A stretch of 49,781 nt of DNA from an uncultured Ruminococcus sp. (GCA_949299215.1 CASFZT010000002.1:1-49781); one strand, 5' to 3'; positions 17,631 to 26,696 are shown, counted from the first letter of the stretch. Notes: generated by a model from the sequence alone, not told the origin. Translations and numbers: made by a program.

Positions 17631-17772
17631 ATAACTTAAGCAAGATGTCCCACGCCTCTAAGGCGGCGGTTTCCATATTCAGTTTCAGTTGGATTCAATC
17701 CCCAACTGAAACTTCATCGCAGCTTCGCTGCTGCTTGCCGCGTTGAATGACGGGGCAAGTCCCTTATTGAAT
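17631..17772 (+). repeat. Structured intergenic repeat, full copy A (L-to-R orientation on the + strand)
   Basis: Nearly identical to 19721-19864 and to the reverse complement of 26553-26696. It contains a 14-bp hairpin (AGTTTCAGTTGG.. / ..CCAACTGAAACT), a CCGCC-TCTAA-GGCGG hairpin, and GGCAAG/CTTGCC/GGCAAG segments. Confidence 0.9.
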
Positions 17773-17783
17773 CTTACCTTATT

Positions 17784-17812
17784 ATTATACAGTCAAAATA
17801 TGTGTATGTCAA
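17784..17812 (-). promoter_or_regulatory. Consensus promoter firing into repeat copy A and on to the S11 carboxypeptidase gene
   Basis: The minus strand reads TTGACA-17 nt-TATAAT. The -10 ends 11 nt before the repeat boundary at 17772. Confidence 0.6.
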
Positions 17813-17949
17813 TTACAAAAAAATCCTGAAATCATATGTACAGGCTGTTGACAAATACGCAGCCATTGTTGAATTGCGGAAGCAACGGCATAAAAAGTTA
17901 TAGTTAGGGGGCAGGTATTTAGTCAATATGTTGAATTGCAAAAATATAC

Positions 17950-17978
17950 TTGCTTTTTTTTGTGAAAAAAGGTATAAT
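17950..17978 (+). promoter_or_regulatory. Candidate pyrG promoter
   Basis: TTGCTT-17 nt-TATAAT. Confidence 0.45.
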
Positions 17979-18068
17979 AATACTTAATATTGCAGATTGC
18001 CTCAGAAAGGCATGGATTATAAATATAAAAAAAGGAGGAAGTGCTTCTTCGGGAGCATTAATTGAGTT

Positions 18069-19667
18069 ATGCCAATTAAATATGTGTTTGTTACAGGCGG
18101 CGTAGTATCCGGTCTGGGTAAAGGCATTACCGCAGCTTCACTCGGAAGACTTCTTAAAATGAGAGGCTACCGTGTCACTATTCAGAAATTTGATCCATAT
18201 ATCAACCTCGACCCCGGTACGATGTCACCCTATCAGCACGGTGAGGTGTTTGTTACGGATGACGGTGCGGAAACAGACCTTGACCTCGGGCATTATGAGC
18301 GCTTTATAGATGAGAATTTGTCCGTTAATTCAAATGTTACTACCGGTAAGATCTATTGGACGGTGCTTAATAAGGAGCGAAGAGGCGATTACCTCGGCGG
18401 TACGGTGCAGGTCATCCCTCATATTACAAACGAAATAAAAGAACGCATTTACCGTGTGGGCAAAGAGAGCGATACCGATATAGTTATTACCGAAATAGGC
18501 GGTACTGTCGGTGATATTGAGTCTACTCCGTTTCTTGAAGCAATAAGACAGGTGGTTACGGAAGTAGGACGTGAAAATGCAATGTATATCCACGTCACGC
18601 TTGTTCCGTATATCGCAGGTTCGGAGGAACTGAAGTCCAAGCCGACACAGCATTCCACAAAGGAACTGCTTTCCGTAGGCATACAGCCTAATGTTATAGT
18701 GTGCAGAAGCGAAAAGGAAATTCCGGATGATATGCGAAAGAAGATAGCGCTTTTCTGTAATGTGCGTCCGGAAGATGTTATACAGAACCTTACTGCACCA
18801 TCGCTTTATGAAGTACCGCTCTGGCTTGAAAAAGAGGGACTTGCAAAGTCTGTATGCCACCATTTGAATATCCCCGATTCCGTGCCCGATCTTACGGAAT
18901 GGGCGGAAATGGTAAACAGAGCAAAAAATGCGAAAAAAACCGTTACGATAGGTCTTGTAGGAAAATATGTAGTGCTTCATGATGCATATCTTTCCGTAGC
19001 GGAAGCTTTAAGACACGGCGGTATTGCAAATGATGCAAATGTTGATATAAAGTGGATAAATTCAGAGGAGATCACACCTAAGAATGTTGATGAAATGCTT
19101 GGTATGTGCGATGGAATAATCGTGCCGGGCGGATTTGGCGACAGAGGCATTGAGGGAATGATCGAGTCAATAAGATATGCAAGAGAAAACAAAGTGCCGC
19201 TTTTCGGAATATGTCTTGGTATGCAGATGGCGGTGATTGAATATGCAAGAAATGTGCTCGGCTTAAAGGACGCAAATTCCACCGAGTTTGGAGCAACGCC
19301 GTATCCTGTTATTGATATAATGGAGGATCAGAAGACGGTTACGGAAAAGGGCGGCACGATGCGTTTGGGATTATATCCATGTAAGCTTACTCCCGATACG
19401 ATAAGCGAGAGAGTTTACAATGATACTCTTATTTATGAGCGCCATCGTCACAGATGGGAATTCAACAATTCGTTCAGAGCAAAGCTTCAGGAGGCAGGTC
19501 TTGTTATTGCGGGACAGTCGCCCGATGAACGTCTTGTTGAGATTGTTGAGGTGAAGGACCACCCATGGTTTGTCGGAGTGCAGTTCCATCCGGAATTTAA
19601 ATCACGTCCGAATAAACCGCAGAAGCTTTTTGCGGATTTTATCAGAGCGTCTCTGGAAAACTTGTAA
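18069..19667 (+). CDS. pyrG: CTP synthase
   Basis: 532 aa. It starts [20 protein letters not shown] and has a C-terminal glutamine amidotransferase domain with GICLGMQ. Confidence 0.97.
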
Positions 19668-19720
19668 GGACGGAAAAAATAAATATCGGGCTGCCTTTTT
19701 TATTGGCAGCCTGTTGCTTT

Positions 19721-19864
19721 ATAACTTAGGCAAGATGTTCCCCCGCCTCTAAGGCGGCGGGTTCCATATTCAGTTTCAGTTGGGGTTCAATCCCCAACTG
19801 AAACTTCATCGCAGCTTCGCTGCGTCTTGCCACGTTGAATGACGGGGCAAGACCCTTATTGAAC
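19721..19864 (+). repeat. Structured intergenic repeat, full copy B
   Basis: Same element as copy A, lying between the pyrG stop and the TrkH/KtrB-type gene start. The central hairpin is perfect (AGTTTCAGTTGGGG TTCAA TCCCCAACTGAAACT). Confidence 0.9.
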
Positions 19865-25428: not shown

Positions 25429-25430
25429 AA

Positions 25431-25470
25431 AAAGCATCAGCCGCTTGTATACGGTCTGATGCTTTTGATT
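25431..25470 (+). terminator. Intrinsic terminator after the pseudouridine synthase gene
   Basis: The stem AGCATCAG/CTGATGCT is followed by TTTTGATTT. Confidence 0.6.
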
Positions 25471-25495
25471 TCAATAAGGGGCTTGCTCCGTCATT
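25469..25495 (-). repeat. R-end module of the intergenic repeat (fragment D)
   Basis: TTCAATAAGGGGCTTGCTCCGTCATT matches the R end of the full copies. It abuts the stop codon of the M15 peptidase gene. Confidence 0.8.
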
Positions 25496-26426
25496 ATACG
25501 ATAATTGATACCTTCTGCTCCGAACGTGTTTCGGTCGGCTGTGCAGCGTCGGGAACAGTCGTGACAGTAGGTTCTTCTTGCGGCAGTTCGACGGGACCCG
25601 TCATTTTTATGGCTTTGCCGTTTTCATCAAGCCAGCCCTGCTCTTCAAAGTATTCTTCAAGACAAAGTCCGCTTTCCTTTATCTCGTTTGCATAATATAT
25701 TCCCACAAAACGATAGTGCCACGGCTCGTAGATAATGCCGGTGATGTCCTCCTTGCCCTCGGGGTATCGTAGTATGAAGCCGTATTCCGCAGCGTGCTCC
25801 GAAAGCCATGCATAAGCCTCGGTATTTTTGAAACCGTCATCATCCATGCTTGTGTATTCGGGGGACATTATGTCTGCGGAAAGACCGGCGTTATGCTCGC
25901 TCTTGCCGGGAAATGCAACTTCCTTTGCGGTGTCGGCATAAGCCTCGTCATATGTCATGCCGGAGTCTATACGCTGCTGTACGCTGTTGTCAAAATTCTG
26001 CTGCTGATATTCTATGGTGCGGTATGCGGAAACGACTTCAAGAGTTATGCCGTCTGCCTTTGCCGCTTCAAGCATATTGGTCATATATTTTGCCATACGC
26101 GAGTCCATGTAATATTCACGCCAGCTTGTGTAGACAAGAGATGTTTCGATAATGCTGTCATAATTGTCAGGAAGCGGGTTCTGATTATTTACAAGGAACA
26201 TTGCCCATTCGTTGTCTATGTTCACTTTTTCCTCCTTTGGTGCGGTCGTGATTATTGAGGTCACGGGCGTTGTGAGTTCTTCCTCTTCATTGTTTTTTGC
26301 GGTAGAGGTAAATCTTGTAAGTAAAAATACGACTGCAAAGAGTATAACGGTCGCAATAAATAAGTATTTGGTACCGCTTAAAATTATGACATTATTTTTA
26401 TTTTTTTTTCTGTATCCCTTTTTCAT
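25494..26426 (-). CDS. D-alanyl-D-alanine carboxypeptidase, peptidase M15B (VanY-like)
   Basis: 310 aa with a TM anchor, the SEHNAGLSADI motif (SxHxxGxAxD) and EPWHYRFVG. Confidence 0.85.
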   Translation of the reverse strand: MKKGYRKKNKNNVIILSGTKYLFIATVILFAVVFLLTRFTSTAKNNEEEELTTPVTSIITTAPKEEKVNIDNEWAMFLVNNQNPLPDNYDSIIETSLVYTSWREYYMDSRMAKYMTNMLEAAKADGITLEVVSAYRTIEYQQQNFDNSVQQRIDSGMTYDEAYADTAKEVAFPGKSEHNAGLSADIMSPEYTSMDDDGFKNTEAYAWLSEHAAEYGFILRYPEGKEDITGIIYEPWHYRFVGIYYANEIKESGLCLEEYFEEQGWLDENGKAIKMTGPVELPQEEPTVTTVPDAAQPTETRSEQKVSIIV

Positions 26427-26520
26427 GAGCCTGTCCTTTCAGAAATTAATAAATTCATTATATCATTTTGCAGCGGATATTTCAACAGGTATTTATAAAA
26501 AAACAGCACGATTTTACCGA

Positions 26521-26549
26521 TTGACGAGGGGCGGATTTTGTGATATTAT
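26521..26549 (+). promoter_or_regulatory. Extended -10 promoter firing directly into repeat copy C and on to the DUF3795 gene
   Basis: TTGACG-17 nt-TATTAT with an upstream TGA (TGn). The -10 ends 3 nt before the repeat boundary at 26553. Confidence 0.55.
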
Positions 26550-26552
26550 TGT

Positions 26553-26696
26553 ATTCAATAAGGGGCTTGCCCCGTCATTCAATGCGGCAAGCCGCAGCGA
26601 AGCTGCGATGAAGCTTCAGTTGGGGATTGAACCCCAACTGAAACTGAATATGGACCCCGCCGCCTTAGAGGTGGGGGGACATCTTGCCTAAGTTAT
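26553..26696 (-). repeat. Structured intergenic repeat, full copy C (inverted relative to A and B)
   Basis: Its reverse complement aligns end to end with copies A and B. It occupies essentially the whole 5' UTR of the 26721 gene. Confidence 0.9.

Follow-up and report, generated by a model that had tools for sequence, protein, structure and literature searches.

A modular hairpin repeat of uncultured gut Clostridia that looks like small non-autonomous mobile DNA

Is the strongly folded repeat found between the genes of an uncultured Ruminococcus sp. a regulatory RNA, or is it a piece of DNA that moves? The question is raised by a stretch of 49,781 nucleotides (GCA_949299215.1 CASFZT010000002.1:1-49781; hereafter the window, meaning the whole stretch that was analysed), which carries three full copies (A, B and C) of an element of about 144 bp together with five partial ones. 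The original prediction drew attention to mutually exclusive helices within the repeat, which it regarded as typical of switch-like RNAs. Our findings indicate that the element looks like small parasitic mobile DNA and not like a regulatory RNA switch. It is multi-copy, lineage-specific, devoid of open reading frames (ORFs), present or absent between related genomes and sharply bounded at its ends, and for these reasons we interpret it as non-autonomous mobile DNA. Taken by itself, the statement that the family is a mobile or selfish interspersed repeat is very probably correct; mobilization by an enzyme of the HUH type is, on balance, the likeliest way in which such a repeat would move. The family is thus an undescribed, lineage-restricted member of the known class of small non-autonomous interspersed repeats.

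Distribution and architecture of the family

The element has a 5' end module (L) and a 3' end module (R), and the family can be followed well beyond the window. The R-module pattern GAYGGRGCAAGNCCCTTATTGAA, for which fewer than one chance match is expected (an estimate from pattern length and database size), matches at least 102 stretches in contigs sampled at one genome per species. These matches come from at least 22 assemblies besides that of the window, bearing out the claim of the original prediction that the repeat constitutes a family. Carriers are labelled Oscillospiraceae, Ruminococcus, Ruminiclostridium, Clostridia or Eubacteriales, with one contig binned as Bacteroides, and the samples derive from humans and from the gut of rabbit (Lapin), goat and water buffalo. 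Many of the matches lie 28-51 nt from the end of a contig, so that the element evidently breaks short-read assemblies. A model of the repeat would aid the assembly, binning and annotation of uncultured gut Oscillospiraceae, whose metagenome assemblies are visibly fragmented by it.

A covariance model trained on 29 copies and applied at a cut-off of E <= 0.01 returned 144 matches in 688 kb of carrier loci; control loci totalling 391 kb, taken from other Clostridia by way of their VanY homologues, gave no match, which excludes chance recurrence. There were likewise no matches in 66 kb around close PyrG homologues (91-92% identical) of other taxa. Searches of viral contigs, plasmids and phages yielded zero matches to the element, ruling out a phage or plasmid origin.

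Carrier sequence amounting to 698 kb holds 126 R modules and 83 L modules; there are 71 L..R pairs and 12 examples of a 29-nt mini form in which the R hairpin stands without the rest of the element. The L..R pairs range from 47 to 288 nt in length, with a mode of 137-138 nt, and element sizes as a whole form a series from 29 to ~293 bp that is generated by the gain or loss of hairpin modules. None of the 71 pairs holds an ORF, the longest, at 288 nt, being too short for a gene. Median identity between copies is 94% within an assembly and 79% between assemblies; the element is amplified separately in each host genome, and each genome has its own subfamily.

Comparison of related loci revealed copies that are present in one genome and absent from another. 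In the locus L203, the closest relative to keep the gene order UDG-dacA-pyrG (PyrG 92% identical to that of the window), the consensus promoter beside copy A is kept as well while copy A itself is absent, the spacer measuring 218 nt as against 490 nt in the window. In L012, a copy is situated between the promoter and the ribosome-binding site of an ABC-transporter gene, and the orthologous locus L066 is without it. Furthermore, the 3' end of htpG carries an L-only remnant in the window, and a mini form occupies the matching place in the L016 orthologue; each supplies the stop codon, and the simplest explanation is that one old full copy decayed along two different routes.

The canonical unit, read from 5' to 3', comprises TATAA just outside the left boundary, then CTTAGGCAAGATG, three hairpins (H1, H2 and H3), CTTGCCACGTTRAAT, the hairpin AATGA-C-GGGG-CAAG-CCCC-TTATT and a final GAA, where the element ends. 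Its consensus opens, after TATAA, with CTTAGGCAAGATGT, which is followed by H1 (CCCCCGCC-TCTAA-GGCGGCGGG, at times extended by ATGTCC/GGACAT); H2 has a stem of 14-18 bp and H3 one of 5-7 bp. The 5' module is constant, the hairpins that follow it vary and number from one to several, and the 3' hairpin is near-invariant. The fold obtained with RNAalifold agrees with single-sequence folds in closing a helix, P1 (TAAC/GTTR plus GGCAAG/CTTGCC), around the three hairpins, with the 3' hairpin standing separate. The hairpins and the three GGCAAG/CTTGCC hexamers listed by the original prediction are all present, and its description of the family as modular and highly structured holds good, the minimum free energy (MFE) being -70.5 kcal/mol (z = -8.3).

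The helices also covary, a property for which the original prediction had proposed a check. In a model-based alignment of 135 distinct sequences, 93.5% of cells pair, as against 39-50% when the partners are slid, changes on both sides occur in 49 of the 50 pairs and the observed score is reached by none of 500 shuffles; these figures are generous, given that the alignment was fitted to the structure and that the copies are related. H2 and H3 alter their sequence yet keep their pairing: one pair of the H2 stem is CG in 37 sequences, AU in 27 and UA in 11, and one base pair of the H3 stem is divided evenly between CG (31) and GC (31). The 3' hairpin and both end motifs scarcely vary, and a G-U (G-T) pair of this hairpin, on the L-to-R strand, is found in 117 of 125 sequences.

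Modularity is most apparent among the internal hairpins. Intermediates of 47, 54, 61, 73, 98 and 113 nt occur alongside extended forms of up to 288 nt, and the elements of two genomes have repeatedly received an additional small hairpin (..CGAAC-NNNN-GTTCG..) in their interior. The loop of H2, in which the original prediction saw a resemblance to a tRNA T-arm, varies by subfamily (TTCAAT, ATACAAT, TTACGAT) and is found in either orientation, as ATACAAT and as ATTGTAT; ARAGORN and the Rfam tRNA model are silent on it, and the resemblance is not supported. As a separate observation, a nested repeat of ~20-24 nt (for example GTGCCGAACTCGTTCGGTAC and AGTGTCGAACTTGTTCGATAC) occurs at several sites within elements, sometimes two or three times in one element, at loci that include L008, L024, L031, L067, L070, L072 and L073 among others (assemblies CAZLBL, CAZTRH and CAZKXB).

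No described family accounts for the repeat. Rfam 15, searched with the window at the gathering threshold, reports only a tRNA at 48260-48333, and the best match of copy B lies below threshold, at 21.3 bits against a cut-off of 42.5; the statement that no named RNA family is involved is therefore upheld at this level. ARAGORN finds only the same tRNA-Met in the window and nothing in the element. The peptides that the element would hypothetically encode have no match in Pfam, which shows that no domain of unknown function (DUF) has been built on it. A literature search for sequence strings of the element gave no match; a 162-nt MITE (a miniature transposable element with inverted repeats; DUF6783) described in a SPLASH preprint was considered and is a different element.

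Ends of the element and a proposed mode of movement

The boundaries of the element are sharp. On the left, in an alignment of 70 copies, the five bases that precede it are T60, A66, T70, A69 and A69 (positions -5 to -1), and sequence from position -6 outward is random; these five bases read TATAA in nearly every copy that opens with CTTAGGCAAG. On the right, the element ends in TTATTGAA (terminal TTGAA), beyond which sequence is again random. The flanks outside TATAA and TTGAA are unrelated to one another in the 70 copies, so that no target-site duplication is present. Nor do the true termini form inverted repeats: when the L end was aligned globally with the reverse-complemented R end, no meaningful match emerged. 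The outermost hairpins start 14 nt inside the left edge and stop 8 nt short of the right one. At tandem junctions in L072 (..TTATTGAA followed directly by CTTAGGCAAG) and L010 (..TTATTGAA followed directly by TGACGGGG..), a new unit starts right after the preceding TTGAA without a TATAA of its own. Additionally, two copies in L022 that are otherwise identical differ at position -5, as a target motif of the form T-N-N-A-A would give. A role for TATAA as the -10 box of a promoter was rejected, the score for a -35 match upstream of elements being that of the background.

Elements of the IS200/IS605 group have neither inverted repeats nor a target duplication; their hairpins are subterminal, their insertion point lies 3' of a transposon-adjacent motif of five nucleotides, their last bases form a transposon-encoded motif, and their gene-less derivatives, the PATEs, are mobilized in trans (PMC10055086). 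The substrate of REP-type TnpA enzymes is a single hairpin with a conserved tetranucleotide in front of it, and cleavage falls on the 5' or the 3' side of the hairpin (PMC8266576). Movement of an IS200/IS605-like kind is suggested for the present family because it lacks inverted termini and a target duplication, has a pentamer outside its left end and a similar one at its terminus, and carries subterminal hairpins. Under this proposal, an HUH tyrosine transposase would act in trans and transfer the element in single-stranded form; the enzyme could be an IS200/IS605-type TnpA, in which case the element would be a PATE, or a REP-type TnpA. Insertion would take place 3' of a TATAA-like pentamer serving as transposon-adjacent motif, and cleavage would follow the element's own terminal TTGAA, the putative transposon-encoded motif, so that the target would not be duplicated. 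A bulged C and a G-T wobble mark the near-invariant 3' hairpin, which may be the site recognized by the protein. The mini form (TATAA, then T-GAC-hairpin-TTATTGAA) could represent the minimal mobilizable unit, or else a product of cleavage at an internal TTRAA directly before a T. The internal hairpins would then be cargo that is gained, lost and flipped at the level of DNA.

The likeness to PATEs extends to several traits. In addition to the absence of terminal inverted repeats and target-site duplication, both have a conserved pentamer abutting the element on its 5' side (in our family TATAA, in Geobacillus elements TTTAT or TTCAT) and another as their last five bases (TTGAA and TTCAC, respectively), hairpins in subterminal position near either end, a size of ~100-300 bp, no ORF and many copies per genome. 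Unlike PATEs, however, the family has left and right hairpins that differ, extra covarying internal hairpins in variable number and a 29-nt form with a single hairpin; its bias towards one replication strand is only weak, and neither a cognate TnpA nor a full-length insertion sequence (IS) with these ends was found in the window or in ~700 kb of carrier loci.

REP, BIME and REPIN sequences with their RAYT enzymes provide a second parallel. Here, too, there is a near-invariant bulged hairpin, at the 3' end, with conserved bases on its 5' side (TGAC), which stands alone at many sites and in both orientations, has putative cleavage motifs (T-N-N-A-A) on either side and takes part in mosaic composites; two mini forms of the window form an inverted pair around a spacer (27078-27180) in an arrangement that resembles a BIME or REPIN. 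In contrast, the bases that precede our hairpin are TATAAT-GAC and not GTAG, the tetranucleotide usual in REPs, most members are composites of ~140 bp and not palindromes of 20-50 nt, the hosts are Clostridia where those of the REP systems characterized in PMC8266576 are Proteobacteria, and no RAYT gene flanked by the hairpins was seen in the carrier loci.

In its overall construction the family recalls the BOX elements of S. pneumoniae and S. suis (boxA-boxB(n)-boxC; PMC3049150). Both are modular composite repeats of Firmicutes in which constant end modules pair and enclose a variable number of independently folding internal hairpins; both are intergenic and co-transcribed with their neighbours, and for both the mobilizing enzyme is unproven. 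The ends of BOX resemble the inverted repeats of ISSpn2, whereas the true termini of our family are not inverted repeats, and its internal modules are distinct hairpins and not tandem copies of a single boxB, which sets the family apart from the published BOX architecture. Taken together, the architecture is most like pneumococcal BOX, and the end features are most like those of PATEs and REPs; there is no apparent sequence similarity to any of the three.

Several observations weigh against mobilization by an HUH enzyme. The window encodes no HUH transposase, TnpB or other transposase, in keeping with the remark of the original prediction that none lies nearby. Nor did a transposase emerge from the ~700 kb of carrier loci by ORF clustering, by inspection of ORFs flanked by repeats or by tblastn with an IS200 TnpA sequence. 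Clustering revealed no multi-copy ORF family; the repeat-flanked ORFs encode only a radical-SAM methylthiotransferase-like protein, VanY and DUF3795; and tblastn returned only noise. A literature search for TATAA as a TnpB-associated transposon-adjacent motif found nothing. The left hairpin (CCCCGCC/GGCGG) is unlike the right (GGGG/CCCC; GGGGCAAGCCCC), where IS608-type ends carry similar hairpins. The status of TATAA as a target is also in question: its TAAC pairs with GTTR in P1, so that TATAA could be carried by the element itself. Of the upstream ORFs that share the element's orientation (36), 8 have the TAA of TATAA as their stop codon, 4 terminate at the TAG of CTTAG and ~4-5 read into the element; such use as a stop codon is far rarer at free non-coding TATAA sites (17 of 686), and the three reading frames are used about equally (~1/3 each), as expected of stops borne by the element.

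The bias towards one replication strand is weak as well. An excess of elements on the G-rich strand amounts to 54 against 40 overall (p = 0.18) and to 41 against 24 where skew is strong, which fits single-strand transposition only loosely, and within the window five elements lie on the + strand and three on the - strand, though the + strand is G-rich except in the 5-kb bin 35001-40000. Finally, no base-exact empty site was found among same-species contigs, VanY relatives, PyrG relatives, L203 and L066. The spacers of L203 and L066 are too diverged to place the junction, the VanY relatives have no gene order in common with the window, and most PyrG relatives have a different gene order. Two contigs of the window's own species, L188 (650-703) and L190 (147-200), diverge from it at 26469/26470, upstream of the VanY promoter. 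The sequence there is replaced by unrelated AT-rich DNA, of which ~55 nt are common to both contigs before they differ, and a clean excision is ruled out on that account; the breakpoint may mark a recombination hotspot or the terminus of a different mobile element.

It is tempting to go further and to regard the family as the visible half of an undescribed HUH system of Clostridia. In this extension, a 24-nt hairpin unit (T-GAC-GGGGCAAGCCCC-TTATTGAA) would be the smallest module able to move, cut on both sides at T-N-N-A-A and carrying variable hairpin cargo, in the manner of REP and RAYT but outside Proteobacteria; alternatively, the cargo would be a trans-acting guide-RNA scaffold for a nuclease of the TnpB or IscB type. 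We consider this extension unlikely. Were either the HUH or the guide-RNA reading true, the 24-29-nt hairpin unit would offer a compact natural substrate for studies of single-strand transposition in Clostridia; were they false, we would be left with one more family of small selfish repeats. The family is a lead to an HUH system in Clostridia, and not surprising in kind.

Competing explanations

A classical MITE of the DDE type would place the mobile boundaries further in. The moving part would be a core of ~118 bp that ends in the imperfect inverted repeats TATAACTTAGGCAAG and CTTGCCACGTTRAAT, the arms of P1, and that has inserted into, or always travels with, a REP-like 24-nt hairpin; the mini forms would then be unoccupied targets or excision footprints (TATAA followed by T). 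Indeed, the L end and the arm before the 3' hairpin match as inverted repeats at ~12 of 15 positions and pair as P1, and the mini junction TATAA-T is the exact product of a precise removal of CTTAGG...GTTRAA. The size, AT-rich ends, intergenic position and strong folding are, moreover, typical of MITEs (PMC3049150). Correia, RUP, ERIC and Nezha elements share with our family that they are small, multi-copy, non-autonomous and strongly folded intergenic sequences with AT-rich ends that can supply stops or alter untranslated regions (UTRs). The core, however, is always accompanied by the 3' hairpin (each of the 71 complete copies with an L module ends in an R module), and with 71 full copies to 12 mini forms nearly every target would need to be occupied. 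MITEs have terminal inverted repeats and target-site duplications, whereas neither is found at the true ends of the family, and no transposase with matching ends was seen in the carrier loci. We judge a DDE-type MITE to be an unlikely explanation. The original prediction had characterized a plain MITE by clear target-site duplications without helix covariation; such duplications were not found and covariation was, so that the repeat is not a plain MITE, yet it does behave as mobile DNA.

A second possibility is that the mobile element carries a structured non-coding RNA, such as an omega-RNA-like guide scaffold of a gene-less IS200/IS605 derivative serving TnpB or IscB, or some other small RNA, and that the internal hairpins have been selected as RNA. 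The strong covariation of H2 and H3, which a transposase does not need, speaks for this, although covariation in DNA palindromes can also come from templated correction. The persistence of the G-U pair in the 3' hairpin on the L-to-R strand argues in the same direction, but the two strands fold equally well (30 copies are more stable on the forward strand and 33 on the reverse), and G-U pairs are balanced between them (5.3% against 4.6%). An attempt to assign the strand from G-U pairs or MFE accordingly revealed no asymmetry, and the mixed strand evidence noted by the original prediction persists across the family. A length of ~140 nt with a 3'-terminal hairpin abutting the flank is within the range of omega-RNAs, and PATEs 'often encode omega-RNAs' (PMC10055086); on the other side, neither tnpB nor iscB was seen in the ~700 kb of carrier loci, by ORF clustering without comparison with TnpB or IscB profiles, and Rfam provides no match. 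Copy A, at least, is directly downstream of a perfect promoter, yet its transcript would be antisense. Elements have no conserved promoter or terminator and no -35 enrichment upstream of TATAA, and their loops flip and their hairpins come and go freely. We regard a non-coding RNA as improbable.

The switch proposed by the original prediction would be a cis-regulatory RNA akin to a riboswitch or attenuator, toggling between GGCAAG/CTTGCC helices to control the adjacent gene. It could draw on the presence of the three hexamers, on an alternative pairing, GGCTTGCC/GGCAAGCC, in the MFE fold of some copies (e.g. L016), and on several copies that end 17-60 nt before a start codon. But the middle hexamer, CTTGCC, is absent (two or more mismatches) from 28 of the 101 non-mini copies, including those of recently amplified subfamilies, and from all mini forms; where they are present the three hexamers are invariant, so that the alternative helix receives no support from covariation. 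Orientation is random with respect to the downstream gene (27 same, 28 opposite; for the upstream gene, 36 same and 19 opposite), and the neighbouring genes are ordinary and unrelated, encoding a D-Ala-D-Ala carboxypeptidase (dacA), CTP synthase (pyrG), TrkH, VanY, DUF3795, HtpG and ABC transporters. A cis-regulatory RNA is disfavoured on both these grounds, and the tens of near-identical copies per genome also speak against it; we hold such a switch to be very improbable. Copies lie either way round in short intergenic spaces, where they often supply an upstream stop codon or sit in a UTR. The resulting changes to host genes are small: stop codons are supplied (htpG), and ~140 nt of strong structure are added to UTRs (the dacA-like gene; the ABC transporter in L012). 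If the element is mobile DNA, as we prefer, then such effects on 5' and 3' UTR structure and stop codons would be by-products and not its purpose.

The core of an attC site is GTTRRRY. An integron-type attC, or another folded single-stranded site of a tyrosine recombinase, is scarcely credible. P1 would here supply the R box (..TAAC / GTTRAAT) and the L box (GGCAAG/CTTGCC) with a spacer that stays unpaired, and the variable terminal structure would consist of the hairpins. In its favour, GTTGAAT and GTTAAAT fit the core, sequence variants are species-specific like those of chromosomal attC arrays, and pyrG is bracketed by two copies in the same orientation. Against it, housekeeping genes separate copies that point either way, and cassette arrays are absent; TATAAC as the left box departs from RYYYAAC; beyond the supposed crossover point stands a constant 24-nt hairpin; and there is no integron integrase, the sole integrase being 22 kb away next to a tRNA.

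Copies and other features of the window

The three full copies are real and lie within 1 nt of where the original prediction had placed them. They align end to end with a mean column identity of 88% including flanks, copy B being 93.0% identical to copy A (blastn, E 1e-50) and 94.4% to copy C (E 3e-60). The five partial copies are likewise genuine, four of them detected by blastn and the fifth by the covariance model. All contigs of the window's own species carry an identical set of copies, from which it follows that these insertions are fixed and not recent.

Copy A (17630-17771, +; 138.7 bits with the covariance model) has the complete arrangement of TATAA and L module, hairpins H1-H3, R hairpin and TTGAA. 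A perfect TTGACA-17-TATAAT promoter on the minus strand (17812 to 17784; 12/12 matches to the sigma-70 consensus) is positioned 12 nt from its right edge and reads toward it. Because this promoter sits 12 nt upstream, transcription of the D-Ala-D-Ala carboxypeptidase (dacA-like) gene at 16430-17578 (-) probably includes copy A, in antisense, as part of the 5' UTR. Copy B (19720-19863, +) is found between the pyrG terminator and a trkH-like gene and scores 163.3 bits. The pyrG gene itself (18069-19667), situated between dacA and trkH, is bracketed by copies A and B in the same orientation; in most relatives with a 91-92% identical PyrG (L194-L202 and L204 were compared), pyrG follows spoVAC. 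Copy C (26554-26697, -; 154.5 bits) occupies the space between the divergent genes for a VanY-like protein (25494-26426, -) and DUF3795 (26721-27071, +), with its left edge ~9 nt from the ribosome-binding site of the latter.

Each R-only piece of the window has TATAAT or TATAAC immediately 5' of the hairpin. What the original prediction took for fragments of the R module are for this reason better described as a defined 29-nt mini form. One such form (25470-25498, -; TATAAT plus GACGGAGCAAGCCCCTTATTGAA) overlaps the stop-codon end of the VanY-like gene. Another (27078-27106, -; TATAAC plus GACGGGGCAAGCCCCTTATTGAA) lies 6 nt past the DUF3795 stop codon and makes up the inverted pair mentioned above with a third at 27152-27180, the two enclosing a 45-nt terminator-like hairpin; this third form, which had been called inverted, is in the + orientation. 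The pair is followed by ~490 nt without an ORF (27181-27670), for which Rfam has no match. A degenerate mini form (40584-40611, +; TATAAT plus GACGGGACAAGTCCTTATTGAA) is recognized by the covariance model (24.6 bits, E 7e-4) where blastn gives just an 11-nt exact match.

The L-only remnant (34473-34515, +) consists of AATAA, CTTAGGCAAAATG and hairpin H1, with 90% identity over 40 nt (E 5e-6), and the T-run that follows H1 makes it read as a terminator. The stop codon of htpG (34475-34477) is the TAA of the left-edge TATAA/AATAA in this remnant. The assertion that all copies are strictly intergenic is, therefore, nearly right.

The sole recombinase of the window is a phage-type tyrosine integrase at 48684-49676 (-), beside the tRNA-Met gene at 48260-48336 (+); together they probably mark the border of an integrated element that continues past the window's last base. 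Further features of the window are a row of four paralogous sortase-domain proteins at 2429-7374 (2429-3406, 3430-4377, 4392-6287 and 6340-7374), the third of which (4392-6287) contains acidic stretches repeated in tandem (5811-5914 and 6026-6217; periods of 9 nt and 24/72 nt), and a prokaryotic RING finger protein (Prok-RING_1) at 46203-47198. At 37130-39151 the window encodes a LytB (IspH) protein fused to four S1 domains.

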